A stretch of DNA of 64,000 bases, taken from IMG/VR virus record IMGVR_UViG_3300037245_003639; one strand, given 5' to 3'. Within the stretch, counting starts at the first letter, position 1. Each line of letters begins with the position of its first letter. Shown here piece after piece: positions 4,932 through 62,910 of the stretch. A program made the translations under genes and the position numbers. Below the pieces are notes generated by a model, which saw only the letters and a list, made by a program, of their open reading frames with translations, was not told where the DNA came from and did not search any database. This DNA comes from a virus.

Positions 4932-5137
4932 TGCAATCTCCTAATTCCCGCCAACCGGCGAAATGGTTCCACCATTGCTTGAGAAAGAGCAACGCGACCT
5001 TCGTCGGTGTTCAATGTTTGTGCGATGATGTGATTCAAATCTACAGTACCACATTTTGGACAATAATTGAATTGTCTTTGGTCACCATGCTTGCATTTAC
5101 GACATCGCTGGAGATTATCCAGTTCCATTTTCGGCAT
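4910..5137 (-). CDS. Small protein with an N-terminal zinc ribbon. Its C-terminal half copies the capsid N-terminus.
   Basis: The N-terminus is CRKCKHG...CPKCG. The C-terminal half, IIAQTLNTDEGRVALSQAMVEP, matches residues 14-36 of the 289-aa capsid candidate. The DNA at 4981-5030 is about 48/49 identical to 15246-15296. Confidence 0.5.
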   Translation of the reverse strand: MPKMELDNLQRCRKCKHGDQRQFNYCPKCGTVDLNHIIAQTLNTDEGRVALSQAMVEPFRRLAGIRRLQCKIRQR

Positions 5138-6246: not shown

Positions 6247-6275
6247 ATCACTCTATTCTCCGCAGCATCTTGGCC
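6247..6275 (-). promoter_or_regulatory. Conserved leader, GATGCTGCGGAGAAT-N-ATG, copy 1 of 2
   Basis: The plus-strand sequence attctccgcagcatc recurs at 6983-7010. Confidence 0.35.
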
Positions 6276-6586: not shown

Positions 6587-6982
6587 TTAGACAGGTTTCA
6601 CTTGGTCCTCTCGACCGTGCTGATCAATATTTTCAATTAGCACAATAGCGTAATCATAAGCTATTGTCGGAGTCCAGGCATGAACCTCGTAAGAGCCATT
6701 GTTCGTCTCAACTACAACTTTCCACCTAATGGATGAATACCCATCGTCATAAAATGGCTCTTCATGAATATCCTGAACTGTAACACCAAATTTTGCGTGG
6801 TACTTACGCAAGGTATCCTTTGCACTTTCAATGGACTTGTGTAAAAGTTCGCTGAAGTCTCCACCATTGCCAATCTGTGCAATTCTCCAATCAGAAGCTA
6901 CAAGACCAACATCTATATGTAGACCGGAACCTGTTGAGTCAAAGATAGTGTCAATTATCATGTCATTCTCCGCAGCATCCAC
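6587..6982 (-). CDS. Hypothetical protein (131 aa)
   Basis: The ORF is preceded by copy 2 of the GCTGCGGAGAAT motif. Confidence 0.45.
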   Translation of the reverse strand: MDAAENDMIIDTIFDSTGSGLHIDVGLVASDWRIAQIGNGGDFSELLHKSIESAKDTLRKYHAKFGVTVQDIHEEPFYDDGYSSIRWKVVVETNNGSYEVHAWTPTIAYDYAIVLIENIDQHGREDQVKPV

Positions 6983-7301: not shown

Positions 7302-7318
7302 AATTGTCTCCTTACCTC

Positions 7319-7348
7319 AATTATACACTGGGCTTAGCTCCAGGCCCA
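7319..7348 (-). promoter_or_regulatory. Sigma70-like -10 box, CAGTGTATAATTGAGG, with an upstream imperfect hairpin. A degenerate copy of the 65-bp repeat.
   Basis: Compare with the repeats at 10529 and 11967. Confidence 0.4.
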
Positions 7349-7371
7349 CGTCAGCGGGATATGATCGAGAA

Positions 7372-7680
7372 TCACGCCTCAGCCCCACCAAATCCTCGAC
7401 AATAGAACTCTTTGTTACAGTGAGGACAGGTTATATCCTGCGGATGATCATCTGTCGGCTCTTTGCTGCAAAAAGGAAGGTTCTCCAGCCGATCATATTC
7501 AGCCTCTTCTGCGGCCTGGGCTTTCTCCCCTTCGGTCAGCTCCATAGGAAAACCATGGGCCAGCCGCAATGCCTTGTCAAAATCATATCCGGCTTCTTCA
7601 ACAAATCTTTTGCACTCTAATATAGGCAGAGCTGTCGCCTTACGCAATCTTACAATGACCGTATTTGGCAAAGAAAACAT
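7372..7680 (-). CDS. Hypothetical protein with a C-terminal CxxC motif. Corrected start at MFSLPNTVIV.
   Basis: The ATG at 7678-7680 is preceded by the conserved GGAGATTGAAG motif. Confidence 0.5.
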   Translation of the reverse strand: MFSLPNTVIVRLRKATALPILECKRFVEEAGYDFDKALRLAHGFPMELTEGEKAQAAEEAEYDRLENLPFCSKEPTDDHPQDITCPHCNKEFYCRGFGGAEA

Positions 7681-7715
7681 CTTCAATCTCCAGATACTTC
7701 GCGCTTTGCTAATTC
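7681..7715 (-). promoter_or_regulatory. Conserved promoter-like element a: GCGAAGTATCTGGAGATTGAAG-ATG
   Basis: One of eight copies of the 35-nt consensus. Confidence 0.5.
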
Positions 7716-7894
7716 TGCATGTACAAATAAGCGCAATCAATCCAGGTGCGCTCAAATTTCTTGTTCTGATCTTTCAATTTATGAGCTTCCCGTTTTGTTT
7801 TACATACGGCACGAATTACAGCATCGTGACTCACTAATTCATAAAGCACCCAAAATTTACTGCGAGTTTGCACAACCTTGGCAACCTTTGCCAT
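7709..7894 (-). CDS. Hypothetical protein. Corrected start at MAKVAKV.
   Basis: The ORF-track TTG start lies inside the motif. The ATG is at 7892-7894. Confidence 0.45.
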   Translation of the reverse strand: MAKVAKVVQTRSKFWVLYELVSHDAVIRAVCKTKREAHKLKDQNKKFERTWIDCAYLYMQN

Positions 7895-7928
7895 TTCAAT
7901 CTCCAAATATTTCTCTAATTGAAGAAGT
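7895..7928 (-). promoter_or_regulatory. Conserved promoter-like element b: GAGAAATATTTGGAGATTGAA-ATG
   Basis: Motif copy. Confidence 0.45.
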
Positions 7929-8283
7929 TCGTTGTTACATCAAGTAAGTTTGGAGCGACAAATGCACCACGATAAGAACTGTCGATTACTTCAAACAAAT
8001 GCAAATAACCTTTTTGCACTTGTAGCAGTTTGTCAATCTGATCTTCAAATACGGTATCAGTTATAGCATACGCAGGCACAAGAAAACATTCACCACAATC
8101 GATAATGTCAGGAGAACTTCGGTTAGCCATAACCACGACGCGCTTAGAATACCGATTAAAACAGATTGCTCTGTCTTGTGGCCACTTGTAATAGGATGCC
8201 TGGATAGTGTTATGGCTGGTTTTGATTGTTCCTATGGTATGCGTCCACCAGGCAATTGTTCTAACAGGCAACCAAATTATCAT
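7915..8283 (-). CDS. Hypothetical protein (122 aa)
   Basis: The RBS is AAAGGTGA. Confidence 0.45.
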   Translation of the reverse strand: MIIWLPVRTIAWWTHTIGTIKTSHNTIQASYYKWPQDRAICFNRYSKRVVVMANRSSPDIIDCGECFLVPAYAITDTVFEDQIDKLLQVQKGYLHLFEVIDSSYRGAFVAPNLLDVTTNFFN

Positions 8284-8474
8284 TGTTTATCACCTTTGAA
8301 ATACCGATACAATTCACCATCAGAAAATGTTCTCAACTCATCAGAATGATACAAACGAGGACGGATGGGTTCGGTCATCATGTAAACATATATGTTGTTT
8401 TCATAACGTGGATTGTTTTTAAGTTCATCACCAACTACTTGGTCATGTATGCGAGATGTTCTATTCTGTTTCAT
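8280..8474 (-). CDS. Hypothetical protein (64 aa)
   Basis: The ORF overlaps its neighbours by 4 nt. Confidence 0.4.
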   Translation of the reverse strand: MKQNRTSRIHDQVVGDELKNNPRYENNIYVYMMTEPIRPRLYHSDELRTFSDGELYRYFKGDKQ

Positions 8475-8989
8475 TGGTTGACTTCCAGAAGTGACAAAAT
8501 TTCATCCATTTTTATCTGCTTGATAATATCAGATGCTTCATCACGCATAGATAACTGAAGATCATAAACCTTCTTGTGCCAATCATAATGTATGTTAGGA
8601 CATTCATGCTCGTCCTGTTTTGTTGTTGGACTTCCAGCAGCAACATATTGCTTGTGAGAAACAGAACAACAACTACCCAAAACCTTGCGAACAACACTCC
8701 TGTTAACGTTCATCTTCGTATCACAAATGCCACAATAAACACTCTCATATTTATCCGGACTTGTTGATAGTTTGTCCTGAAAATGTGCATTAGGCTCTTT
8801 TGTCGAACGTTGAGGAAACATCTTCTGTTTGCCCGGGGGATAATAAGATCCTGGATTGGGAGCAAGCGGCAACTTGCCCGCATATACTCGTCTGTTGTTC
8901 TTATCCCTTATGACAACTTCAGCGTCACCAGCAGGATTTTCGTGAACTTGCACCAATTCAAAATCCGCGAATACTTCCTCATTCATCAT
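8471..8989 (-). CDS. Hypothetical protein (172 aa)
   Basis: The ORF is preceded by motif copy c. Confidence 0.5.
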   Translation of the reverse strand: MMNEEVFADFELVQVHENPAGDAEVVIRDKNNRRVYAGKLPLAPNPGSYYPPGKQKMFPQRSTKEPNAHFQDKLSTSPDKYESVYCGICDTKMNVNRSVVRKVLGSCCSVSHKQYVAAGSPTTKQDEHECPNIHYDWHKKVYDLQLSMRDEASDIIKQIKMDEILSLLEVNQ

Positions 8990-9272
8990 TCAAATCTCCA
9001 GATGCTTCTCTATCCGGTGAAAGTCTTCCGTTCTCTCTCTCGGATTCATAAAGTGAAAGCGCAACCTCTACCAACTTTTTCACCGCATTATCATATTCTT
9101 CGTTCATCCGAAGACCAGATCTCCAATTGTCCAAAGCGTGTTTCAAACTTCTTATATACAGATCATCTTGAAGAGGACAACCAGCACCAGTTGTACTCAT
9201 ATTCACTTTTTCGGCAATTGATAAGAGCCCTTCCATGTTATTAACACCAGGCCACCATTCAGGACGATACAT
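8979..9272 (-). CDS. Hypothetical protein. Corrected start at MYRPEWW.
   Basis: The ORF-track start is a TTG inside the motif. Confidence 0.45.
   Translation of the reverse strand: MYRPEWWPGVNNMEGLLSIAEKVNMSTTGAGCPLQDDLYIRSLKHALDNWRSGLRMNEEYDNAVKKLVEVALSLYESERENGRLSPDREASGDLNDE
8990..9030 (-). promoter_or_regulatory. Conserved promoter-like element c: CACCGGATAGAGAAGCATCTGGAGATTTGA-ATG
   Basis: Motif copy. Confidence 0.45.
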
Positions 9273-9318
9273 CTTCAATCTCCAAATACTTCGCTATGCG
9301 GTGAAAATCACTTTGTTC
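9273..9318 (-). promoter_or_regulatory. Conserved promoter-like element d, full consensus: TTCACCGCATAGCGAAGTATTTGGAGATTGAAG-ATG
   Basis: Motif copy. Confidence 0.5.
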
Positions 9319-9341
9319 AGCTTTATCTTCCATGTCGTTTT

Positions 9342-9683
9342 TTAGGGCAAAGGATCAACCATACCATGTTGACGCATAAATCTCCGACGTTCCATTTTAT
9401 CCTCAAATATTTTGTTCGGTGTTAACTCACGATCCCGTTTCTCAAGTTCCTCTTTAAGTGGAACTGTTTCTTCTTCTTCTTCTTCTTTTGCCCACTTTTT
9501 GCGGGCTTCTCTGGCTGTTTTCTCTCCCACTATGTTACATAGATAACCACCGCATGACCAACACTCCCATTCACAACATTCTTCAAGAGTGGGATCAACA
9601 ACGTTGACTTTCTCGCATTTAGAGCACACTTGAGATAATATATGCTTGTTATTTTCCGTTAACTTTTCGCCAATCTTTGTCAT
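9342..9683 (-). CDS. Zinc-ribbon protein with a Glu-rich tail. Corrected start at MTKIGEK.
   Basis: The sequence contains CSKCEK...CCEWECWSCGGYLC. The ATG is preceded by motif copy e. Confidence 0.5.
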   Translation of the reverse strand: MTKIGEKLTENNKHILSQVCSKCEKVNVVDPTLEECCEWECWSCGGYLCNIVGEKTAREARKKWAKEEEEEETVPLKEELEKRDRELTPNKIFEDKMERRRFMRQHGMVDPLP

Positions 9684-9915
9684 CTTCAATATCTCCAGAT
9701 ACATACTTGTCGCTATCGTCTTCTCTGGGTTCTGCCAGTCGAATGATTTCTTCCAAATGTTCAATTATAAATGGAGCAACAGTATACGTCTTCATGCCAC
9801 TTGAAAACATCCCTCCAAAATCATCCAAATCGTCTTTGTGTTCGCAAAGAAATCGCTCGATACGACCAATAGGATTGTTCTTAAATGTCACGGTTTTTAC
9901 TCGTCGCTCGGTCAT
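9649..9915 (-). CDS. Hypothetical protein. Corrected start at MTERRVKT.
   Basis: The ATG is preceded by motif copy f. Confidence 0.45.
   Translation of the reverse strand: MTERRVKTVTFKNNPIGRIERFLCEHKDDLDDFGGMFSSGMKTYTVAPFIIEHLEEIIRLAEPREDDSDKYVSGDIEDDKDWRKVNGK
9684..9722 (-). promoter_or_regulatory. Conserved promoter-like element e: CGATAGCGACAAGTATGTATCTGGAGATATTGAAG-ATG
   Basis: Motif copy. Confidence 0.45.
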
Positions 9916-9950
9916 CTTCAATCTCCAAATACTTCCGACAAACAAGCCCT
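9916..9950 (-). promoter_or_regulatory. Conserved promoter-like element f: GTCGGAAGTATTTGGAGATTGAAG-ATG
   Basis: Motif copy. Confidence 0.45.
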
Positions 9951-10524
9951 AAAATTTGTTGTCAGCTTTGGCAATTAGCTTGTCAAACGGAGCCAGTTTT
10001 TCTACAGGCACCGATAAACCTCTATGCCCTGTCCTGGGAATATTTCCAAGTTTACCATGCTTCTTTATAATCGATCCATTCGCAGAGCATATACCTGCAA
10101 TATGAACATGTGGTTCATTGGTTTCGTCCAAATGGACAAAGACCTGCATATAGCCAAACACGTTCGCTTTCTTTAGTTCTTCCTCTTTAACAAACAGATT
10201 CAGACCGCCTCTGAAAGGAGCATATTTGCTTGTTTTGATATTCCAAATAGTCGTCTTGCCAGAGATATCTATGTGGACATCCCCTTCATCCCCTTTACCA
10301 CAAACCAACTCCAACGAACAAATCTTCTTTGCTTTGCCAAGTTTATCAAAGACGATGAGACTACCCAACAAATCCAGAAAATCACCTTGCCCCCTAAACT
10401 GCTCTTCTATTTCGTTAAAACCGGATCTGCGTTGCTGAGGAACGAGGTTTTGATAGAAGTGCTCTGCAAAACTAAGCAAGGGCTGAGGGATGGCTATATA
10501 AAAGTCGTTTAATATTGCTTGCAT
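9949..10524 (-). CDS. Hypothetical protein (191 aa)
   Basis: The ATG lies immediately downstream of the 65-bp repeat with a TATAAT box. Confidence 0.5.
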   Translation of the reverse strand: MQAILNDFYIAIPQPLLSFAEHFYQNLVPQQRRSGFNEIEEQFRGQGDFLDLLGSLIVFDKLGKAKKICSLELVCGKGDEGDVHIDISGKTTIWNIKTSKYAPFRGGLNLFVKEEELKKANVFGYMQVFVHLDETNEPHVHIAGICSANGSIIKKHGKLGNIPRTGHRGLSVPVEKLAPFDKLIAKADNKF

Positions 10525-10528
10525 TTTT

Positions 10529-10595
10529 CATTATACACTGAGCTTGGCTTCAAGCTCGGCAATTTCAACCCATTATGAGAGACCACGCAGCATCT
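10529..10595 (-). repeat. 65-bp repeat, copy 1: hairpin GAGCTTG-AAGC-CAAGCTC followed by the -10 box AGTGTATAATG
   Basis: It is near-identical to 11967-12030. Its 3' part encodes the C-terminus AAWSLIMG of gene 10565..10783. Confidence 0.6.
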
Positions 10596-10783
10596 ATAAG
10601 TTCATCATCCCATGTCTCTACATATTCATAAGGCAATCCATGTTGAGCCGTCCGAGATGATATGACGTGAATCTGCAAATCTCGGAATTCTTCTTCAGAC
10701 ATGTCTACTGATTGGCCTGGAGCAACAGACCTATTATATAAGTTCATTTTTGTTGATTCGATGTTGGCGATTGTTGTGCTCAT
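10565..10783 (-). CDS. Hypothetical protein (72 aa)
   Basis: The ORF is preceded by motif copy g. Confidence 0.45.
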   Translation of the reverse strand: MSTTIANIESTKMNLYNRSVAPGQSVDMSEEEFRDLQIHVISSRTAQHGLPYEYVETWDDELIDAAWSLIMG

Positions 10784-10830
10784 TTCATCTCCAAATACTT
10801 CGCTATGCGGTGAAAATCACCCTTCTTGCA
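10784..10830 (-). promoter_or_regulatory. Conserved promoter-like element g: TTCACCGCATAGCGAAGTATTTGGAGATGAA-ATG
   Basis: Motif copy. Confidence 0.5.
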
Positions 10831-11026
10831 CCCACGAATTTGATACACCCATATAGTATATTCGTTCCAAAACGCGAGAAGCAAATCGACTGTCACATTT
10901 GGTACAAATCATCAATGGCTCACGCCCGCGATGTTTACCTCCATTCTCAAGATCTGCTAGGAACGCATTTTGGTTAGTTGTGCCACAATTCGGACATTCA
11001 AATTGGTAAACTCGTTTCTTACCCAT
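10817..11026 (-). CDS. Zinc-ribbon protein. Corrected start at MGKKRVY.
   Basis: The sequence contains CPNCG...CTKC. The ORF-track N-terminus is translated through motif copy h. Confidence 0.5.
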   Translation of the reverse strand: MGKKRVYQFECPNCGTTNQNAFLADLENGGKHRGREPLMICTKCDSRFASRVLERIYYMGVSNSWVQEG

Positions 11027-11072
11027 CTTTATCTCCAGATACTTTTCTATGCGGTGAAAGTCACCTATAGAT
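11027..11072 (-). promoter_or_regulatory. Conserved promoter-like element h: TTCACCGCATAGAAAAGTATCTGGAGATAAAG-ATG
   Basis: Motif copy. Confidence 0.5.
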
Positions 11073-11374: not shown

Positions 11375-11530
11375 TCAATCTGGCCATTTCATCAACTCGG
11401 GCAATGGGAGCGGCAACCATTCTCCGCTACATTTAGGACAACAGTGTTCATCTTTTTTTGAGGCGGGAATTTCTTCGCCGCAAAAAGGACATGTGAGAGT
11501 GACAAATTCGATGATGGTGATTTCAGTCAT
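11375..11530 (-). CDS. Micro-ORF (51 aa) encoding a zinc-ribbon protein that is missing from the ORF track
   Basis: The protein reads MTEITIIEFVTLTCPFCGEEIPASKKDEHCCPKCSGEWLPLPLPELMKWPD. Its ATG at 11530 overlaps the stop of the upstream gene (GATGACTGA), which suggests translational coupling. Confidence 0.45.
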   Translation of the reverse strand: MTEITIIEFVTLTCPFCGEEIPASKKDEHCCPKCSGEWLPLPLPELMKWPD

Positions 11531-11948
11531 CAATCATTCCCCATCCACCTTTGCGAGGCGGTGGACGACGTTCCACTTTTTTATCGTTAACAATACAAGA
11601 ACCATCTTTACTCAATTGGAGGCTCCCACTTAATCGCCCGTTGGCCAAATCAACCCACATGGTTTCTTCGACCTTCCCTGCATGAGTGGTGTCGTCTGTA
11701 TCCGAAATACAAGGGAATGCATACTTGAGTTTGTCCGCCAATGCTATCGTAAAATCTATTTCCCCCGATAAAAGCCCCTCCAGGGTATCCATGCTAATTC
11801 CAGCGTTTTCGCAAACTTGTTCGTTCGAAAGTTTAAAGAGTTTTATGTGCCCCAACAGTGTATCAGATACAGTTTTGCATTTCAGAGCATCTATATCTCG
11901 ATTTTCTATCCACTCCATGTTTTTCATATCATCTTCTATTAGATCCAT
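11523..11948 (-). CDS. Hypothetical protein (141 aa)
   Basis: CTCAGTGTATAATGAATCTGGAGATATGAGAC-ATG lies upstream, giving a -10 box plus an RBS. Confidence 0.5.
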   Translation of the reverse strand: MDLIEDDMKNMEWIENRDIDALKCKTVSDTLLGHIKLFKLSNEQVCENAGISMDTLEGLLSGEIDFTIALADKLKYAFPCISDTDDTTHAGKVEETMWVDLANGRLSGSLQLSKDGSCIVNDKKVERRPPPRKGGWGMIDD

Positions 11949-11966
11949 GTCTCATATCTCCAGATT

Positions 11967-12030
11967 CATTATACACTGAGTTTGGCTTCAAGCTCGGCAA
12001 TACTCAACCCATTATGAGAGACCACGCAGC
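11967..12030 (-). repeat. 65-bp repeat, copy 2: hairpin plus AGTGTATAATG. It carries a 27-aa gene-fragment paralog ending AAWSLIMG.
   Basis: About 90% identical to copy 1. Confidence 0.6.
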
Positions 12031-12121
12031 GACGATGGGCTCATATTTGTCACAATCACATTTCCAGATCCAATGTTGAGCATTCATATAGTTCTCGCCA
12101 ACGAGTACAATCCAAGATGAC

Positions 12122-13306
12122 TCAAAAATCACCCAAATCCAACCCTAGCTCTTTTAGTTCGTTAAAAATCCTTGCAGAATTTACATATGACTGAGTGTAA
12201 TTTGGCTCAGTGGCAATAGTTAGCAATTTGGATTGACGAAGTAAAAAATTGAGTAATGAGAAATCGTTCTTCTGGAATTGTCGAGAGAAATCTTCCTTAT
12301 CCCAGATTCTTGGATCAAAACCATCAATATCATGAACAGCAAAATCCAAATCAATATCAAACCACACAGGTACATCCCAATTTTGCAAAAGACCATGATC
12401 TTTTATAGCATTCTGGTCTAAATTTAATAATTCCCTTATTTCTTCCAATCTCTCATCTTCAGAGAGATCAGAGTGAAAATTTTCAAACAATCCCAAATAA
12501 TAATGAGGGACAGATCCATGTCTCTCTTTTTGTGGATAATTACCCTCGGCTGGGCAATCGGCAAAGAAGGTTATAACGCCTTTCACCATACCCATTTTTG
12601 CTGCCACATAAACCCATGAATCATCTAAAGGGGCTAATTTATTAGCAAATGAGAGGCATTCATCAACATCAGTTATATCATTCATTCCAAATGATCCAAG
12701 TGAATCATAATAATGATCAGGACAGGCATCATTATGTTTGTCAAATCGAATCAACACTGGTGGAGATGTAAATATTCCATCTTTGAATGCAGCCCATATT
12801 GCAGGAATCACCGCCCGATGATCTTCAATGAAAACATCCGTTCTTCCATCTATAGGATAACCTCTATTCACTCTGAAATTCATGCTTTGGTCAAGCCTGT
12901 CCATGTGACAATAACAATCACGATAAGAACTTTTGTCCAATTCAAGAATACCCGACAAGATGGAAACGAAATCGTCAATTTCCTCATCTGAGATACCGCC
13001 TGATTGTCCATCCATATCAAACCAGGCTAACTCAAAAACAACAACCGCGTTTCTGTTATAAATGCTAAACCCAATTATGTTCCCGCGTTTATTTTTAGCC
13101 TTATGAACATCTATGGCCCTCGAAATAGATTCCAAAGCATCCCAGGCGTCATCAGTGGGATTCACAACAAAATTAACATAAAATGCCCCATGCTCAACAT
13201 GCTCAGTATCAGGCTTTTTGTGACCACCGCATGAAGATGCTACCCGAACATCCGGAATTGAATTGAGCACCTCAATGAGTTTTTTAACTCTCTTTTCGAT
13301 CATCAA
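12122..13306 (-). CDS. Hypothetical protein (394 aa)
   Basis: This is a long ORF. It overlaps the LAGLIDADG gene by 4 nt (ATGA). Confidence 0.55.
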   Translation of the reverse strand: MMIEKRVKKLIEVLNSIPDVRVASSCGGHKKPDTEHVEHGAFYVNFVVNPTDDAWDALESISRAIDVHKAKNKRGNIIGFSIYNRNAVVVFELAWFDMDGQSGGISDEEIDDFVSILSGILELDKSSYRDCYCHMDRLDQSMNFRVNRGYPIDGRTDVFIEDHRAVIPAIWAAFKDGIFTSPPVLIRFDKHNDACPDHYYDSLGSFGMNDITDVDECLSFANKLAPLDDSWVYVAAKMGMVKGVITFFADCPAEGNYPQKERHGSVPHYYLGLFENFHSDLSEDERLEEIRELLNLDQNAIKDHGLLQNWDVPVWFDIDLDFAVHDIDGFDPRIWDKEDFSRQFQKNDFSLLNFLLRQSKLLTIATEPNYTQSYVNSARIFNELKELGLDLGDF

Positions 13307-14295
13307 TATAAGTCTCCAGCCATGATCAGTTTCTTTGCACTCTCAATATGCTCAGGCATCATCCTCGGCCTACCTTTAGCACTCGCTCGATAACACCCCA
13401 GCCGACCCGTCTTCACCAGATGACTTAATCTATTATACTGGACGCCAAGCTCATCAGCGACCTCTCGCAGGCGCTTAGCCTCAAATCTCCACTCTGGCAG
13501 GTCGAACTTATAGTCATAACATTTGATGGGAGATTGGCGACCTATAAAATCGAAGAAGGCAGGAATGCCTTTGGCTTTTATCCAGATGCGGTTGTCGTTA
13601 TTACGGTGACAGGCGATACCTTTCTCTCTCAGCTTTTCCGCGAGAAATTCGACATTCTCAGGTGTGAAACCATCAGTTGAAAGGCGGACAACGATAGCAT
13701 CACCAGTCTGAACCAGAGACCCATCACCGAGATACCACATCATAACTGACTTGGGGGTTATGCGCACATCTTCAGGAGGTTGCTTCTTGCCTCCGTCCGG
13801 ATACCAACGAAGATACTGTTTATGGAAATCAGGGTGCGTCTTCGTTTGCCCATTCCACCGAAACCCTGATTTCATACTTTGATCTCTATATTGTGCGGTT
13901 TTTGGCTTGTATCGATGGAAGGGAGTCATCATGTGGTAACAGAAGCCTTCGTGTTCTAAGCCGCATGTAAGCCTTGCGACTTCGGTTTTGCTTCTACTGT
14001 CTGTTGAGATACATCCATCTCCTAAAAGGAATCCATCTAACGCTTCGACGGTGGGTTCCGTCATGTATGAGATCTCATAATCCAGAGGATCAGGATCTCT
14101 TTCTCGTTTGGCTTCAGATCTTGTCCTCCCTATTCCATGTTTCTTAGCATACTTGAATAAAGTTCCGATTGAAATGTCTATACTTTGTTCAAGAAGCATC
14201 GCTCGGATCTTAGGATAAGACATCCTCGCTTCAACATAGTGAGTGACAAAAAACTCTTCAGTCAACAGATCAGAATAATGCGGTTGCTCTCTCAT
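13303..14295 (-). CDS. LAGLIDADG homing endonuclease with two motifs
   Basis: The motifs GFLLGDGCIS and MWYLGDGSLV are two LAGLIDADG-like dodecapeptides. The RBS is AAGGAGAT-CGAAA-ATG. Confidence 0.75.
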   Translation of the reverse strand: MREQPHYSDLLTEEFFVTHYVEARMSYPKIRAMLLEQSIDISIGTLFKYAKKHGIGRTRSEAKRERDPDPLDYEISYMTEPTVEALDGFLLGDGCISTDSRSKTEVARLTCGLEHEGFCYHMMTPFHRYKPKTAQYRDQSMKSGFRWNGQTKTHPDFHKQYLRWYPDGGKKQPPEDVRITPKSVMMWYLGDGSLVQTGDAIVVRLSTDGFTPENVEFLAEKLREKGIACHRNNDNRIWIKAKGIPAFFDFIGRQSPIKCYDYKFDLPEWRFEAKRLREVADELGVQYNRLSHLVKTGRLGCYRASAKGRPRMMPEHIESAKKLIMAGDLY

Positions 14296-14384: not shown

Positions 14385-14424
14385 ATGAACATAAAGAAAG
14401 GAGCGACCCTTTCGGGCCGCTCCC
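14385..14424 (-). terminator. Rho-independent terminator after the capsid gene
   Basis: A GC-rich hairpin, GGAGCGGCCC-GAAA-GGGTCGCTCC, has 9 of 10 bp paired. On the minus strand it is followed by the U-rich tract CTTTCTTTATGTT. Confidence 0.55.
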
Positions 14425-14466
14425 TTGAATCTACTGAGTTGTCACGTAAGTCCTTATACTACAGGA

Positions 14467-16147: not shown

Positions 16148-19100
16148 TTAGCGCCACAACTCGTGGCTTCCTTTGTCGTCTGATAGTTTTCGATAATCCT
16201 CATTACGCTTATCGAGCGTAAACATACTCTGGACTGTTTCTCTCAAATCACTTTTGTTGTCATCCTGTGTTCCAGAGGTTTTTAGGAGAAACGGTGTTTC
16301 AACTGAATCTTTCGATGCTTGCCGACGCAACCCCTTAGTTCCTAATGCTTTTGTAATCAACTTTTGATAGTCAGCTAACATTTCGGTAGATGCTTTGGAC
16401 AACTCTTTTACTTTTCCTGGTAGTTCGTCTATTGAGATTTCATTGAGTTTCAACAGTTGTCCAGCAATCTTGGTTGCTGTTTCTACTTTTGAGGCCATTG
16501 CGGCAATATCGTTTTCTTTGCCCAAAATCTGTTCCTGTTTCTCAGGATCGTATTTTTCTACTGTGTCGTATTCGGGATGGCTGCCTCCGCCCGCTGGGTA
16601 CTCAGGGCCATCCAACTCATTCGTGTATGTATGTTCACGGGCAAGTTGGCCGCCTTCTGGTGCCTCGGGGACGCTTGGTTCGCTCATCCCTTCACTCGGC
16701 TTCTTCTCGTCAACTCCCAGGCTGTGTGATTCGTCAGCGTGTGTCTTACCTTGACCTGGGCCAGAGCTTGGGTTTAGATCTGGATCGTCTTCTAACTTCC
16801 TTACGTTCTTCGTTGTAACTGTTTGGCTTTCCTTTATTTTCTTGTAATTTTGTGCTTTACGTCCACAGGTACATGGACACTTGTCACATTTTTCGCATAC
16901 TTGCTTATCTTCCATGGGTTTGAATTTGGCGATCAGGACGACGTTTTCGTTTTGATCTACATTGAGGTCATAGATCATGCCGTCTGTCAGTTTGACCTGT
17001 TCTTCACCTGCATCTGCCTTCTTCATAAAAGCCGCATAGAATTTGTGGTCTTTTGAGACAGTCCAGATGCGGGCCGTTTTGGTATTTGCCATATCGTTTC
17101 CTTCGCTAGTTGTAGCGGCAGTTTTGACTGGTTTCTTCGACGCAGCCGCCGAAGTCATTGGCCCACCGCCCTGGTTTCCATCAACCACATTGCCTTTTTC
17201 TGGCTTGAAATGTTGCTCACCAGCCATGAGAGGCGAGCCATGCGGGACAGTAGGCAGATCGCCAGTCTCGCTAATAGTAATATCTGCTGTTTCATCACCC
17301 AGCGTGGCTTGTGCCCGTGGGACATCTGGTTTCGACTTTACATCGGTGGTAAATGAATCTTCATGGCCCATACTCCCACCGTCTTTTATTTTTCCAATCC
17401 CGTCAGTTTCTTGGACAGGAGTTGCTTTGATCTTTTCGCCTTCACTGGCGCCTTTGTACTCCATCTTTTTGACATCGCCGTCCGACTTAGCCGCAGTTTT
17501 CTGAGCAGCAGCTTCGGCTTGGGCCAAAAGACCTCCAAAAACGCTATCGAGAGAGTTTTGGTAAGTCTTGATGGTGCCGCGCTTCATGCCGTATAGCTCG
17601 TCGTCAAGACTTGCTTCTTTTACTTGCCCCTCGGTTTCTGCGAAGGGGAGTCTAGATTCTGGCTTTGGTTTTGACTGGATTTCTGGTTTGGATTCCATTG
17701 GCATTGGTTTGGCTTTTGCTTCTGGAGCTTCCATTTCCATTTCCTTGTCTTCGCCAGTAGTATGCTTCTCTAGCATCTCCTTTTCTTCGGGCTCTTCAAA
17801 GGGATTTCCTTCAGCCTCGGGTTCTCCTTCGGGCTCTTCTTCAACCAGCCCTGGAATCCCCTCTTCGCTTTCTTCCATTCCTGGAATTCCCTCTTCGTCT
17901 TCACCCTCTTCCACGGTATCTTCGGTGATATCTCCGACATCGAGTATGTCATCACCTGTCTCATCAATCATGCCTTCGCCAAGTTGTCCCTGGAGAGCAT
18001 CAAAGAGTACTTGAAGGGCTTCCATGGCATCTGGAGGGAGCTGAATCGTGATACCTTCGTCACCGAGACCAATGAGATCATCGTTGGCCATTTCATCGAA
18101 ACCGCCATCCATGTCATCGAAACCGCCATCCATTTCAATGCTCATGTCCATCTCGGTACCGTTGTCTTCAGCCATATCCATACCCATCTCATCGGTATTG
18201 GTTATGACATCATCCATTGGCTGAGGAATGTCAGGCATTTGTTTCATGCCGCCTGGTTCACCCATCGGATCTCCTAGCGGAGAGCCGCCCATTGGACCCG
18301 CCGATGGATCTGCCATAGGATCTGCTGCTCCCGGCTCAGCCATTGGCTTGGGCATAGGAGAAAGCATCTGATCTGCTGGGGCAGCGCCCATTCCTGGAGC
18401 GCCCATTGGTTTCGGTGCCATTCCTGGAGCGCCCATTCCTGGAGCGCCCATTCCTGGAGCTTCCATTGGCTTCGGTGCCATGCCTGGAGCGCCTATTGGG
18501 TCTGTCGGAGGAGCCATCATTGGCTTGGCCTGACCGCCACCTGGTAGCTTCGGCGTCTTAGTTGCCGGGTCCATTGCTCCACTTGGAGCAGGCATTGGTT
18601 TGGCATGCATTGGTTTGGCACGCATTGGCTTCATCTGAAGTGGATTGATCTGAGCAATAGATTCGATGACCAATTCTTCAGCAGAAGCATATGCTGCTCG
18701 GAGAGAGTCACAGACCGTGCAAGCATCGCCCACGTCCATGTTGTTATCACGGACGAGCATAGCCACGCAGGTCTTCATTGGGCTACTGACCATGGGGTTC
18801 TTGTTGGCTTGCATCGAAGCAACCTTCGCTGCCAAGCCATCGGAATAGATACCCATCGAAGAAAGCTGACCACAAACGCAATTAGCTAAAGGTTTGCCTT
18901 CACATGGACCGCTCATTGCCGTGGCATTTTCACCAAAGCGGCGAGCGATACGTTCCATGCAACTGGCGGATGGGAATTTATCAAATTTATCGTAACCCTT
19001 CCAACGTGCGGAAGCGGCAATCTTCTTCAACGGTAGAGGCTCTTGCATTGCAGCCTCAAGGTCGAGTGTACCAGCCTTGGCCATCTTCAAGATGATTTCA

Positions 19101-21583
19101 CCCTGCTCTGCTGCGCCACGAAGTTGACCAAATTCACCCCAAGACATGCCGTAATCGTTCAGCGAAGTGATAAACGCCGTGCGAAGACGATTACAACCAG
19201 AGCAAGATGCTTCGCTTGTCATGGGTTGCCAAATATACTGGCCATAGAGACGATTCTTTTTGCCTTTGGCCATTTTGACTTGGACGTTGAATTCTTGCAT
19301 ACATTCCCAACAGATTCCATCGTTGCCTTTATGTGTAGCAGACTTATCTATTTCAGTGTCGCTGCTACCACAACTGGGGCATACTTTACCAAATTGAACT
19401 TCTTGAGATGCAAGTTTCTCAAGAATTCGTGGGGTCAGGCGGAAACTGGCTGCGACGGGGACATTAGGAAGTGTCGTGCCACCTTCTTCTATGCCTGCTT
19501 CCATGCCAGCCTCTTCGGCTCCGATGCCCATGCCTTCTTCTTCTCCAAGCCCAAATCCGCCTTGTTCCTCGTCGCCTGTCTCTTGAATGGTTTCAGGCCA
19601 CTTGGCGACATCGAGTTTGACACTAATATTACCTTCGGCTCCACAGTTATTACAGCGGAACTCACCATTATCTACGTCAACGTCTTCACCGCCACATGCT
19701 GGACAAACGGAACCTGGTGGTTTAGGTTCACTTCCGCCAAGTCCCTCTTCCTCTCCCATCATAGGATCTTGTGATAGTGCTTCACCGGCAGGAGGTTGAC
19801 CCATATCTCCGCCGCCGGGTGGAGGTGCTGGATTGGCCATGTCTGGTCCTGCTGCTGGCGGCATGCCGCCTGCTCCACCCATTTGAGCGGTTTTGACTGT
19901 TTCTGGGTTAGAAGTCCTTCGAAAGAGATTTACTCCACTACCTTCTCTTGCTTTCCTTTCCTCTTCTTCTGCTGCTTTTTCTGCTGCTTCTTTTTCTCTT
20001 CTTGCTAGCGTAGCTGCGCTCGGAGCATTTGCTTCTTCCTCGGGTGTTTCTTCTGCTTCTTTAGCCAGTTTTCGACGATTCTCTGCTCGCTTGGAGAGTT
20101 CTTTCTCGTGTCTACTGGCTTCGATGAATTGAATCTCAAAAGCCCCCTTTTCAGTATTGACATCGAGCATATTGGGGACAAGTTCTATTTTCTTTCCTAC
20201 TTTGGCTAAGATCTTCTCAGAAGCAAATTGAGCTGCTGCTTTAGCAAACTCATCTTTGTCTTCAACTTTCACACCAGTTGCTTCTACTACTTCTTCAACT
20301 GGGCCAGCGTAGGCATAACGGCCATCCGAATCATCGCCTTCGACGATATCTTCTCTTCCTGCCAGAACTTGCTGGAAGACTGAAGTATTCTCTGATTCTT
20401 TGACGTTGCTATCAGAGTTTGCAAGCACTTGGTCTGATGCATCGTTGATGCGGTCAGCAAATGTTGCATCAGCGGCCATTGCGACGAGACCCTCAACAAT
20501 ATGGCGAGGGTCATAAGCGATTTTGGCTAATTGACGAATAAGGACATCTGCGGCCAAGAATTCTGACCACTCGGTACCAGTGTTCGCTGTCTTGCCGAAG
20601 TGTCTGGCTTTTGCGATCTTCTTATTAATGACAGAAACGTCATGCTCAGCATAACGTTTCAGGGTATCAGCCAGAACTCTGTATTTTGTTTCATCCGATA
20701 CAAGCCGACTGGCAATGCCTGCCAATTCTTGAGGGGTAATACCTACGGAGATAACTGTCTTGCCGAAAGCATCCAGAGCCTCTTTGATAATCTTCCCAGC
20801 AATTTCAGCCGTCAATCTGGCGAGTTCGCCGTCTTGCTGAGGGAGCTGGTCTTTACCTTCGGTGACTGTTAGAGGTTCGGTCCATTTATGGTGACGCAGC
20901 AACTCCATGAGTTGCTTCTCGCCGGTTTGTTTGTGTTGTTTCTCTAGACCGCCGTCATATTTCGATCCGATTTCGCCACGCTCTGAAGCTCCAACGTCGG
21001 TATAGTCATCGACGCCTTGGTTGAATTGATCTTCGGTGACAGTGTTGCGGTCTTCTTGCTTCCAATCACCAGCGGTTCGGTCAACCCCATAAAAAGTAGT
21101 CCGCTCATCGCGGAATTGACCTTGGGTGATAATGTCGTAGGTTCCAGGGCGCTGGCCATGTTCTGGAAGTTGTCTCTGAGTAATATTAGTATAGTAGTCT
21201 TCCCAACGAGGGTGAAGACTGGTTTTCTGGTCGTCAAACTGTTTTTGGGTAATCTTGTCAGAGGTGTCAGTGTCAAGAGTGGCATGCGCTGCCTCTTTTT
21301 CCATCTCTTCTGCATCAAAGCTCGCTACAAATTCACCTAAAATTTCTTGTGCTGCGTCCTGAGGATCTGAATTTATGAGTTCGACAAGACTGTCATCTAG
21401 TTCCGCAACCCTTATTGCAGCAATTTTCTCTCCATCGAAAAAATGATCGATGCTGGTTTTGGAAATGATGATTTTGTATTGGCCTTTCTCGGCCTCTACT
21501 TTGGTGGATACGTTAGAACTCGCTTGCTTGATCCGGTTTCGGAGCTTGTGGACGAGTTCTTGACGTTTGGCTGTATCTAACAT
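16148..21583 (-). CDS. Giant acidic protein of about 1811 aa with Pro/Met/Gly repeats and two Zn-ribbon modules. Likely an internal virion protein.
   Basis: The corrected start is MLDTAKRQ, preceded by TAGGAGCC and a 6-nt spacer. It contains (GAPGM)n repeats, the motifs CPACGG...CNNCG and CPSCGSS...CWEC, and long Asp/Glu-rich tracts. Confidence 0.6.
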   Translation of the reverse strand: MLDTAKRQELVHKLRNRIKQASSNVSTKVEAEKGQYKIIISKTSIDHFFDGEKIAAIRVAELDDSLVELINSDPQDAAQEILGEFVASFDAEEMEKEAAHATLDTDTSDKITQKQFDDQKTSLHPRWEDYYTNITQRQLPEHGQRPGTYDIITQGQFRDERTTFYGVDRTAGDWKQEDRNTVTEDQFNQGVDDYTDVGASERGEIGSKYDGGLEKQHKQTGEKQLMELLRHHKWTEPLTVTEGKDQLPQQDGELARLTAEIAGKIIKEALDAFGKTVISVGITPQELAGIASRLVSDETKYRVLADTLKRYAEHDVSVINKKIAKARHFGKTANTGTEWSEFLAADVLIRQLAKIAYDPRHIVEGLVAMAADATFADRINDASDQVLANSDSNVKESENTSVFQQVLAGREDIVEGDDSDGRYAYAGPVEEVVEATGVKVEDKDEFAKAAAQFASEKILAKVGKKIELVPNMLDVNTEKGAFEIQFIEASRHEKELSKRAENRRKLAKEAEETPEEEANAPSAATLARREKEAAEKAAEEEERKAREGSGVNLFRRTSNPETVKTAQMGGAGGMPPAAGPDMANPAPPPGGGDMGQPPAGEALSQDPMMGEEEGLGGSEPKPPGSVCPACGGEDVDVDNGEFRCNNCGAEGNISVKLDVAKWPETIQETGDEEQGGFGLGEEEGMGIGAEEAGMEAGIEEGGTTLPNVPVAASFRLTPRILEKLASQEVQFGKVCPSCGSSDTEIDKSATHKGNDGICWECMQEFNVQVKMAKGKKNRLYGQYIWQPMTSEASCSGCNRLRTAFITSLNDYGMSWGEFGQLRGAAEQGEIILKMAKAGTLDLEAAMQEPLPLKKIAASARWKGYDKFDKFPSASCMERIARRFGENATAMSGPCEGKPLANCVCGQLSSMGIYSDGLAAKVASMQANKNPMVSSPMKTCVAMLVRDNNMDVGDACTVCDSLRAAYASAEELVIESIAQINPLQMKPMRAKPMHAKPMPAPSGAMDPATKTPKLPGGGQAKPMMAPPTDPIGAPGMAPKPMEAPGMGAPGMGAPGMAPKPMGAPGMGAAPADQMLSPMPKPMAEPGAADPMADPSAGPMGGSPLGDPMGEPGGMKQMPDIPQPMDDVITNTDEMGMDMAEDNGTEMDMSIEMDGGFDDMDGGFDEMANDDLIGLGDEGITIQLPPDAMEALQVLFDALQGQLGEGMIDETGDDILDVGDITEDTVEEGEDEEGIPGMEESEEGIPGLVEEEPEGEPEAEGNPFEEPEEKEMLEKHTTGEDKEMEMEAPEAKAKPMPMESKPEIQSKPKPESRLPFAETEGQVKEASLDDELYGMKRGTIKTYQNSLDSVFGGLLAQAEAAAQKTAAKSDGDVKKMEYKGASEGEKIKATPVQETDGIGKIKDGGSMGHEDSFTTDVKSKPDVPRAQATLGDETADITISETGDLPTVPHGSPLMAGEQHFKPEKGNVVDGNQGGGPMTSAAASKKPVKTAATTSEGNDMANTKTARIWTVSKDHKFYAAFMKKADAGEEQVKLTDGMIYDLNVDQNENVVLIAKFKPMEDKQVCEKCDKCPCTCGRKAQNYKKIKESQTVTTKNVRKLEDDPDLNPSSGPGQGKTHADESHSLGVDEKKPSEGMSEPSVPEAPEGGQLAREHTYTNELDGPEYPAGGGSHPEYDTVEKYDPEKQEQILGKENDIAAMASKVETATKIAGQLLKLNEISIDELPGKVKELSKASTEMLADYQKLITKALGTKGLRRQASKDSVETPFLLKTSGTQDDNKSDLRETVQSMFTLDKRNEDYRKLSDDKGSHELWR
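18384..18500. repeat. In-frame tandem repeats, cattcctggagcgcc units, encoding (GAPGM)n in the giant protein
   Basis: Direct repeats of 15 to 30 bp are visible. Confidence 0.6.
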
Positions 21584-26835: not shown

Positions 26836-27243
26836 TTAGCCCTTTACATGCTTAGGTATATCTATTCCCATTAGCTCGTTCTTTTGGTAGTTTCCTGCAT
26901 TCTTCGGCATTGGGACGCCCCACATATCTGTGGCGTGAGAAAGAGCACCCTTCAATGATTCAAAATACTTACCTGACGGGGAATAGGCTTTCTTCTTGGG
27001 GTCTTTCGGCATTCGCTTAACCCCAGCAAAAAAAGATTTTCCATAACGCTTGGAAACAGCAGGGCCAACCACTACGTAATAGGGATGGCCTGACTCGTGA
27101 TCAAAACCTTCCCATCTGAAATAAGAACCAGGTAAAATCTTCTCGAATTTTACTTTTGCATCTTTAGATTTCTTGCCGTATCGTTCTTCCCAACGAATAT
27201 GTCTTTCTTTTAGCCGTCGCCGGCCCGCGATGATAGTTTTCAT
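26836..27243 (-). CDS. Small basic protein (135 aa)
   Basis: The RBS is GAGGGTG. It overlaps the upstream gene in an ATGA arrangement. Confidence 0.5.
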   Translation of the reverse strand: MKTIIAGRRRLKERHIRWEERYGKKSKDAKVKFEKILPGSYFRWEGFDHESGHPYYVVVGPAVSKRYGKSFFAGVKRMPKDPKKKAYSPSGKYFESLKGALSHATDMWGVPMPKNAGNYQKNELMGIDIPKHVKG

Positions 27244-62495: not shown

Positions 62496-62910
62496 CTAAA
62501 AACTCCTTTGCAACATTTGTGGGGAAACGTTTCGGAAGAAACTTGAAACTGCGGCGTTGACGAGCGGTTGGGTTAAACCGCTTCGTACAGTGTTCACATG
62601 GCCAGATTGAATGAAGCAATTGCCTCAGAGTATTAGCATTTCTCTGAGCTTCATACAATAGTGGGCCATGGACGGACAAAGCGGTATGTTCTCGCCAATA
62701 GGGGGGATCATATCTAACGCTATGGTAGTGTTCTGCTACTCGTGTGTTAGCATACTGCCTTAGCAACTGCTCAAAATCCAATGCATTCTGAGGGTAGTCG
62801 CAATGGGGGCATCTAAGACCACGCGAACGGAAAGCCTTCTGGATGACTTCGGCGTTACGCCAATCGGCATCTTCAAATGCTTCGGCTAAAATGTCAGTAG
62901 CAACGCTCAT
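62488..62910 (-). CDS. Zinc-finger protein (140 aa)
   Basis: The sequence contains CPHCDYP...CEHCTKRF. Confidence 0.5.
   Translation of the reverse strand: MSVATDILAEAFEDADWRNAEVIQKAFRSRGLRCPHCDYPQNALDFEQLLRQYANTRVAEHYHSVRYDPPYWREHTALSVHGPLLYEAQRNANTLRQLLHSIWPCEHCTKRFNPTARQRRSFKFLPKRFPTNVAKEFLDD

Follow-up and report, generated by a model that had tools for sequence, protein, structure and literature searches.

A start-associated repeat in the small-gene array of a huge phage: probable ribosome-binding junctions with a decaying homing-endonuclease tail

Repeats placed directly before the start codons of small phage genes have close described counterparts in the start-associated sequences (SAS) and extended start-associated sequences (ESAS) of Cluster K mycobacteriophages (Pope et al. 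2011, PMC3203893), whose function was unproven when they were described and was thought to be translational, and in the promoter-early stem-loop (PeSL) cassettes of T4-type phages (Arbiol et al. 2010, PMC2839356; PMC4122927), for which a role as patches of homology in the insertion, deletion and exchange of cassettes has been proposed and shown (PMC2839356; PMC4122927). Here we analyse a repeat of this general kind in IMG/VR virus record IMGVR_UViG_3300037245_003639, a 64,000-nt stretch of DNA (the window) that is a fragment of an uncultivated tailed phage with nearly all of its genes on the minus strand. In an array of small genes, eight copies of a short motif each stand before one gene, and a preliminary description made from the letters alone proposed that they were promoters. 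We conclude, with a probability of about 0.6, that the copies are start-associated ribosome-binding junctions whose longer form is the decaying tail of a homing-endonuclease gene, rather than promoters.

The layout of the repeat closely recalls that of the SAS. Both are short, asymmetric repeats that contain a Shine–Dalgarno (SD) sequence a few nucleotides (3–8) before mostly ATG starts and keep to one orientation; both are confined to the non-structural part of the genome, where they precede unrelated gene families; and in both about half of the copies have a further conserved upstream extension. The sequences themselves differ, however (GGGATAGGAGCCC in the SAS consensus versus TTTGGAGATTGAAG here), and the ESAS is a pair of 17-bp inverted repeats, whereas the extension here reads as a decaying endonuclease coding tail. 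The host and phage lineage are also different, and the SAS is cluster-wide whereas the present motif is patchy among relatives. The motif is an analogue of the SAS and not a member of that group. The function of the SAS is, to our knowledge, still unexplained. For the repeat described here, a concrete origin can be proposed: part of it would derive from the 3′ terminus of a mobile endonuclease gene that would also bear the SD of the next gene. This suggests that debris of homing endonucleases can be put to new use, as junctions for expression and for recombination, in the hyperplastic regions of huge phages. It also offers a testable account of the extended start region common to unrelated small genes, in place of a promoter reading that is attractive but lacks support.

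Start-associated copies and the origin of their extension

The core pattern GAAGTATYTGGAGAT, counted at up to two mismatches on both strands of the window, occurs eight times between 7686 and 11045, always on the minus strand, which confirms the repeat as it was first described (cores at 7686–7700, 7899–7913, 8994–9008, 9278–9292, 9691–9705, 9921–9935, 10787–10801 and 11031–11045). The sole match outside the array, at 62869, is intragenic and lacks GGAG, and the scan of the window found no copy in the structural module. When up to three mismatches are allowed, 20 matches are found versus 4.7 ± 2.3 in shuffled sequences. The block common to all eight copies is about 15 nt long and terminates in the SD. 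GGAG lies 5–9 nt from the ATG in every copy, a proper distance that bears out its earlier assignment as an SD, and the distance from GGAGAT to ATG ranges from 3 to 7 nt, differing by indels. Each ATG opens a small open reading frame (ORF) of 61–172 aa. GGAG(A)-type SDs are used also by most other genes of the window. Copies 4 (core 9691) and 6 (core 8994) lie fully within the coding sequence of the upstream gene. The genes behind the copies are mutually unrelated: all-against-all BLASTP detected no paralogy, ruling out paralogy of the downstream genes as the cause of the common upstream sequence.

The geometry also bears on annotation. Five of the motif-preceded genes begin, in the mechanical ORF list, at a TTG in or upstream of the motif, giving N termini such as MEIEM…, MKM… and MFVGSIWRLKM…. 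These extensions are artefacts, as had been suspected, and the five start-codon calls are corrected here; annotators should likewise be wary of reading such repeats as promoters.

Four copies, lettered c, d, g and h in the preliminary description, share the 5′ extension TTCACCGCATAG (at 9010, 9294, 10803 and 11047), as that description had stated; the extension is also written GGTGAYTTTCACCGCATAG… or CACCGCATAG. We find it very probable that this extension derives from the 3′ end of a DUF559/Vsr-type homing-endonuclease gene. Read in one frame, the long copies give (G/S/E)DFHRI(A/E)K(Y/H)LE(I/M), that is, G-D-F-H-R-I-x-K-Y-L-E. In the closest relative sampled (L110), the gene immediately behind the head gene, of 309 aa, ends …WECEADAGDFHRIRKYLNV-stop (GDFHRIRKYLNV-stop), and its 310-aa homologue in a second relative (L113), 48% identical, ends …WECEAELGDFHRIEKYLE-stop (GDFHRIEKYLE-stop). 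Both proteins show matches to DUF559/Vsr and to phage endonuclease families, with zinc-finger repeats at the N terminus. A database search gave 32 clusters of this family, nearly all of which end GWKWAxVWECEAxxGDFHR(I/L)xxYL followed by 0–10 variable residues; across 26 diverse members, when aligned, D301, F302, H303, R304 and L309 do not vary.

A hidden Markov model (HMM) representing the family was run over 4164 six-frame fragments from the window and from a third relative, L162, which had been found by scanning Joint Genome Institute (JGI) metagenomes with a back-translated DFHRIxKYLE pattern and which is syntenic with the window, its head protein being 95% identical. Motif copies topped the ranking, all of them on the last ~20 positions of the model, with E = 3.7e-8 in L162 and E-values of 0.022 (c5), 0.022 (c2), 0.052 (c1) and 0.38 (c6) in the window. 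According to tblastn and HMM searches, the window keeps only the last 11–21 codons of the endonuclease and no intact nuclease-domain ORF; its copies are relics, not genes. Differences between copies are biased towards synonymous changes in the tail frame (0.55, versus 0.35 and 0.03 in the other frames, in a small sample), as would be expected if the copies diverged under protein-coding constraint; because the sample is small, the homology itself is the stronger argument. The arginine codon, for example, is CGC, CGG or CGT in the window and L110 and AGA in L162 and L113. The palindrome-like GGTGAnnnTCACC follows from the G-D-F-H codons and is interrupted in each of L110, L113 and L162.

The 5′ part is eroded to different degrees: copy 5 keeps about 21 codons, copies 1, 2 and 6 keep about 11, and copies 3, 7 and 8 about 2–3 (xKY). 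The 3′ part, TTGGAGATTGAAG-ATG, is retained, and it is identical in many copies of the window, L113 and L162, even though the head gene, at 95–96% protein identity, has only 76–82% nucleotide identity between these genomes, its synonymous sites being near saturation. That the short core has the same endonuclease-tail origin as the extension is an evenly balanced proposition. Because the C-terminal pattern of the family is KYL(E/D/N)(I/L/V) and one allele, in the relative L171, ends …KYLSNGD-stop and contains TGGAGATTAG, it is plausible that GGAG is located in the Leu–Glu codons of the tail, in which case the endonuclease gene would bear the SD of the gene behind it.

We propose the following model. 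Each copy would be the translation-initiation junction of one small gene, made up of the GGAG SD, the spacer and the ATG, and the small genes would sit on polycistronic transcripts of a hyperplastic array. The sequence 5′ of GGAG would be no signal in itself; it would be the fossil 3′ end of an endonuclease gene (…WECEAxxGDFHRIxKYLE…) whose last codons, in the intact gene, would supply the SD of the next gene. Selection would retain TTGGAGATTGAAG-ATG as a ribosome-binding site, and the 3′ part would be kept for that reason while the 5′ part erodes copy by copy. A role of the copies as ribosome-binding sites in vivo is, judging from their placement, highly likely. Because the same junction flanks unrelated genes, it may in addition form a homology patch for the gain, loss and exchange of cassettes among related phages, and to this function as a recombination linker we would give somewhat less than even odds.

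Several observations weigh against this model. An ordinary ribosome-binding site needs no exact ATTGAAG spacer, and the identity of the spacer across genomes with saturated synonymous sites would call either for an extra sequence-specific constraint or for recent horizontal spread and homogenisation. No sampled intact endonuclease ends exactly in KYLEIED followed by ATG, the nearest endings being YLE-stop, YLDI-stop, YLNI-stop and YLSNGD-stop with TGGAGATT. Single-copy HMM E-values in the window (0.02–0.4) are marginal. Finally, the six intact endonuclease loci all lie at one site, so that several relics within the array require events that were not observed.

Endonuclease site, junctions and cassette turnover in relatives

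The intact DUF559/Vsr endonuclease of the relatives heads the same small-gene array, just after the major head gene, which is the conserved anchor upstream of both the endonuclease site and the array. All intact loci (6/6) occupy this single site and none was found inside the arrays. In the window, L110–L115, L160–L162, L168, L170 and L171, the position directly behind the head gene and its terminator is always taken by a gene of endonuclease type, with the family varying: LAGLIDADG in the window, L112 (twice) and L162; DUF559/Vsr in L110, L111, L113, L168, L170 and L171; and a DUF7487 protein in L114/L115 and L160. The site looks like a contested homing site.

Free-standing phage homing endonucleases, such as those encoded by the seg and mob genes of T4, pass through a cycle of invasion, decay and loss. 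Here too an endonuclease gene sits between conserved genes beside a highly conserved target (the major head gene), the site is occupied by alternating endonuclease families, and pseudogene fragments remain. Unlike in the T4 case, the remnants consist of the last 11–25 codons, repeated many times in one array, and they would have been retained because they bear the SD of the next gene; the endonuclease, moreover, is DUF559/Vsr-like and not of the GIY-YIG or HNH type.

L113 and L162 carry the identical 3′ part TTGGAGATTGAAGATG before small genes of their own, and before unrelated genes TTTGGAGATTGAAGATG recurs, exact or with one mismatch, at five places in L113 and at several in L162. Common to the relatives is only TTTGGAGATTGAAG-ATG, which begins about 3 nt upstream of GGAG. 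The relics of L162 extend as far as WANVWECE… (E = 3.7e-8) and show various internal deletions. In one, WECETEQGDFHRIEKYLEIEE-stop, the TGA overlaps the next ATG; others read CENELGDFYRIERYLEIED followed by ATG, and RRRIEKYLETKR; and two, WANVWECEAEL-IKE-stop and SNVWECETEQNNA-stop, flank the homologue of the window's 69-aa gene. L162 also has several short forms, the exact TTGGAGATTGAAGATG among them.

The 69-aa gene provides a direct comparison, being flanked by copies 1 and 2 in the window just as its 58-aa homologue is flanked by relics in L162. The orthologous junctions keep different pieces of the endonuclease tail in the two phages, which implies that the gene once had a longer repeat, at least about 25 codons, on each side. 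This is the only array gene common to the window and L162, and its neighbours differ; the arrays of L110 and the window have no small gene in common despite conserved flanks. From one relative to the next, almost all genes of the array are different.

In L113, three genes (17158–17835, 18341–18541 and 19875–20066) continue across the junction in the frame of the endonuclease tail, with the ends …YLEIEDEYN-stop, …RYLEIEDGTIH-stop and …LSLEIEDD-stop, the relic having become the C terminus. A Logan contig that is 100% identical to window positions 9282–10816 (L108) ends within two identical 34-nt long copies, c2 and c5; this one contig suggests that the motif repeats may break short-read assemblies of this phage.

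The motif was not found in several relatives with comparable arrays (L112, L160, L161, L168 and L171). Other junction families do occur. The window itself contains a second one, GATGCTGCGGAGAATG, present three times (6254–6268, 6964–6978 and 11418–11432), and in L170, a 557-kb relative, junction repeats of this kind have another sequence: at least 12 copies of TTTAGCCGCAGGGGAGAGCG-ATG (-ATGATA) at 9.4–14.6 kb, several of them followed by a shared N terminus, MIIDTT. The window gene at 6961 likewise begins MIID.

A broader proposal, which we put forward tentatively and regard as rather doubtful, is that the tail repeats (ancestrally ~75 nt, …WANVWECEAxxGDFHRIxKYLEIED-ATG) are the linkers of an integron-like cassette system in this huge-phage clade. 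The repeat bounding each small gene would provide a ribosome-binding site plus homology for insertion, excision and exchange, and the turnover would be driven by double-strand breaks from homing endonucleases competing for the post-head site. In a stronger form of the proposal, a phage factor would also read the exact SD–spacer–AUG and so co-regulate the array.

Alternative readings of the junction and transcription of the array

The constrained spacer could instead mark an RNA operator, in which the SD–spacer–AUG block (UUUGGAGAUUGAAGAUG) would be bound or cleaved by a RegA-like repressor, a RegB-like SD-cutting RNase or a small RNA, encoded by phage or host, that would switch the whole small-gene array together; such a function would be compatible with a relic origin of the extension. 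The spacer is exact in about half of ~20 copies from three genomes with saturated synonymous sites, which is more than an SD needs, and the mycobacteriophage SASs show a like unexplained conservation flanking the SD, for which such a factor was proposed (PMC3203893). We nevertheless consider an operator unlikely. No candidate RNA-binding regulator was identified in the window, and no complementary sequence was found on either of its strands. Nor was a conserved RNA structure found at the motif: fold energies were near those of shuffled sequences for most copies (z ~ −1.8 to +1.0), the lowest being that of copy 1 (−12.3 versus −8.2 ± 2.3 in shuffles), no Rfam family or tRNA was detected there, and the GGUGAnnnUCACC hairpin is unconserved. 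The spacer has indels or substitutions in half of the copies, and the patchy distribution among comparable arrays, together with the quite different junction of L170, also argues against a common regulatory factor.

The ~20-bp junction might, alternatively, be the recognition or cleavage site of the DUF559/Vsr enzyme, or of the LAGLIDADG enzyme at its site today, so that the copies would be past invasion sites and double-strand breaks would drive cassette exchange. The motif forms one unbroken stretch with the endonuclease gene's 3′ end, and the motif downstream is altered in the intact alleles (…TATCTGAATGTG in L110 and …TACTTAGAATAG in L113), as it would be for self-immunity; the start of the L170 endonuclease gene has TTTTGGAGATTGAA-ATG in front of it, and the clade is rich in homing elements. 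Every intact gene, however, was found at one locus and never within an array, and intact motif copies joined to tail relics in one genome are unlike the outcome of a simple homing cycle; we regard this reading as quite improbable.

The promoter reading of the preliminary description, in which a phage single-subunit RNA polymerase, a sigma factor or an activator would recognise the motif and define a second temporal class, has one copy per gene or gene group in a single orientation and a superficially T7-like run of a conserved block into GGAGA in its favour, but is hardly credible, since the block common to all copies is so short (and in relatives extends only to ~3 nt upstream of GGAG), GGAG stands at a variable SD distance from ATG, two copies are embedded in genes, the extension is a decaying coding tail and the array already has other promoters; a transcript that contains the SD cannot have its promoter within the conserved block, which leaves no room for one, and the second temporal class is unsupported as well. 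The T7 promoter shares the conserved block ending in GGAGA, but there the block is 23 bp long and does not vary between −17 and +6, the SD lying tens of nucleotides further downstream, whereas here it is shorter, the SD is formed by its own GGAG, and the window showed no polymerase gene. Searches of the larger ORFs of the window with Pfam, PHROGs and PDB sequences found no RNA polymerase or sigma domain, several large ORFs being unassigned, and three large ORFs matched none of the solved structures in PDB sequence searches. A consensus scan found neither a sigma-70-type hexamer pair nor an extended −10 element (TGnTATAAT) at any copy, and inspection by eye found no motif hexamer with A2 and T6 plus a TG extension. 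A reading of GGAGAT-N5-ATG as a leaderless promoter similar to TATAAT-N5-ATG was also rejected, given the 3–7-nt spacing and the lack of key −10 bases in GGAGAT.

Transcription of the array most likely starts not at the junctions but at three promoters that combine a stem-loop with TGTATAAT. On the coding strand of the window, TGTATAAT was observed 7 times versus 1.6 expected, and three of these sites bracket the array as a repeat of a stem-loop and an extended −10 box (family D3, Table 1). No terminator-like site was found on the coding strand between 12000 and 7300. Of the array genes that have no motif, those at 8474 and 8283 overlap the preceding stop codon as ATGA, and the one at 10524 is leaderless behind TGTATAAT. 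Because these genes are coupled or leaderless while the others carry the junction, the array can be read as two operons in which each independently initiated cistron would use one common ribosome-binding junction. A weak ninth core, AATGAATCTGGAGAT at 11956–11970, comes directly after a TGTATAAT promoter, with the gene start at 11948.

The arrangement TGTATAAT-5 nt-ATG without an SD recurs in the clade: in the window at 10524–10537, in L110 at 17089 and 20735, and in L113 at 14326, with further such genes in L112 (16032, 19171) and L168 (8001, 9880), endonuclease genes themselves included. These apparently form a class of leaderless genes in this phage clade.

The D3 repeat, in which a 7-bp stem-loop, GAGCTTG-AAGC-CAAGCTC, directly precedes the TGTATAAT extended −10 box, resembles a PeSL, and a 41-nt coding repeat, 85% identical between 12004–12044 and 10565–10605 and ending …AAWSLIMG-stop, precedes D3 units 1 and 2. 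The eight-copy motif resembles the T4 cassettes in being a junction repeat of a hyperplastic region of small ORFan genes that ends in a downstream SD and start codon. It differs from them in lacking both a sigma-70 promoter and a stem-loop; the window's PeSL-like elements are the separate stem-loop and TGTATAAT repeats at 12001, 10563 and 7353. Recombination from copy to copy, moreover, is known for PeSLs, whereas for the motif the only pointer is indirect, the 69-aa gene with its differing neighbours in L162.

Feature positions and phage context

Table 1. Positions of junction copies, promoter-associated repeats and landmark genes in the window
Feature	Position	Strand	Description
Copy 1, long	11024–11065	−	GGTGACTTTCACCGCATAGAAAAGTATCTGGAGATAAAG-ATG; before 69-aa zinc-ribbon gene 10817–11026; tail frame reads GDFHRIEKYLEIK; matches C-terminal end of endonuclease HMM
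Copy 2, long	10781–10821	−	Before 72-aa gene 10565–10783; reads GDFHRIAKYLEMK-stop, the TGA overlapping the downstream ATG
Copy 3, short	9913–9935	−	GAAGTATTTGGAGATTGAAG-ATG; before 88-aa gene 9649–9915; starts 14 nt past the upstream stop
Copy 4, short, degenerate	9681–9705	−	GTATCTGGAGATATTGAAG-ATG; before 113-aa gene 9342–9683; within 3′ end of upstream gene
Copy 5, long, with further decayed 5′ part	9270–9333	−	Reads MEDKAEQSDFHRIAKYLEIED; before 97-aa gene 8979–9272
Copy 6, long, diverged	8987–9025	−	GACTTTCACCGGATAGAGAAGCATCTGGAGATTTGA-ATG; before 172-aa gene 8471–8989; within upstream gene
Copy 7, short	7892–7913	−	GAAATATTTGGAGATTGAA-ATG; before 61-aa gene 7709–7894
Copy 8, short	7678–7700	−	GAAGTATCTGGAGATTGAAG-ATG; before 102-aa gene 7372–7680
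Copy 9, weak, fused to promoter	11946–11975	−	TGTATAATGAATCTGGAGATATGAGAC-ATG; before 141-aa gene 11523–11948
D3 unit 1	11965–12001	−	Stem-loop GAGCTTG-AAGC-CAAACTC + TGTATAAT; probable operon start for copies 9, 1 and 2
D3 unit 2	10527–10563	−	97% identical to unit 1; ATG of 191-aa gene (9949–10524) 5 nt on; probable operon start for copies 3–8
D3 unit 3, weaker	7317–7353	−	Downstream end of motif-bearing array
LAGLIDADG endonuclease gene	13303–14295	−	Occupies the post-head site where relatives hold the DUF559/Vsr endonuclease
Major head protein, 289 aa	14467–15336	−	phrog_2522, E = 4e-67; followed by strong terminator 14397–14426
Mu-type portal with DUF559/MTES_1575 insert	27240–29675		Domain assignment
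Large terminase	Window		Domain assignment

Beyond the genes in Table 1, the window encodes a ribonucleotide reductase, an HNH endonuclease, an RNA ligase, the head domain of a CCA-adding enzyme and a peptide deformylase. A search with an 1811-aa protein recovered about 30 metagenomic relatives at 40–69% identity, on contigs of up to 326–557 kb; these are huge phages. Some relatives carry Cas3 and Cas7; in L114 (20827–25391) and L115 (17797–22361), genes for a Cas3-like helicase and Cas7 lie near the same structural module. The portal and adjacent genes of several relatives (L110, L111, L114 and L159–L161) bear inteins with LAGLIDADG domains, and the structural module is very heavily loaded with homing elements.

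The clade is missing from INPHARED and IMG/VR. BLASTN found no match among INPHARED phages to the array or to 24 kb of the structural module; in IMG/VR, three motif patterns gave single chance matches only, and protein-based scans with an 1820-aa protein and the endonuclease alignment gave nothing. A 17-mer scan of GTDB genomes gave only single matches among the matches listed (~80 of at least 120 loci).

The head protein is 87–99% identical among relatives, versus 44–78% for neighbouring proteins. At 95–99% protein identity the head gene has 73–82% nucleotide identity, with synonymous sites near saturation, a pattern of unusually strong purifying selection and not of recent transfer; the same nucleotide identity rules out endonuclease-driven co-conversion of the 289-aa head gene. 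Short duplicated pieces of the head gene, N-terminal (…LTNEQKEAIIAQA…) and C-terminal, occur inside small array ORFs, at 4955–5029 in the window, at 21177–21419 and 24593–24958 in L110 and at 12000–12296 in L170.

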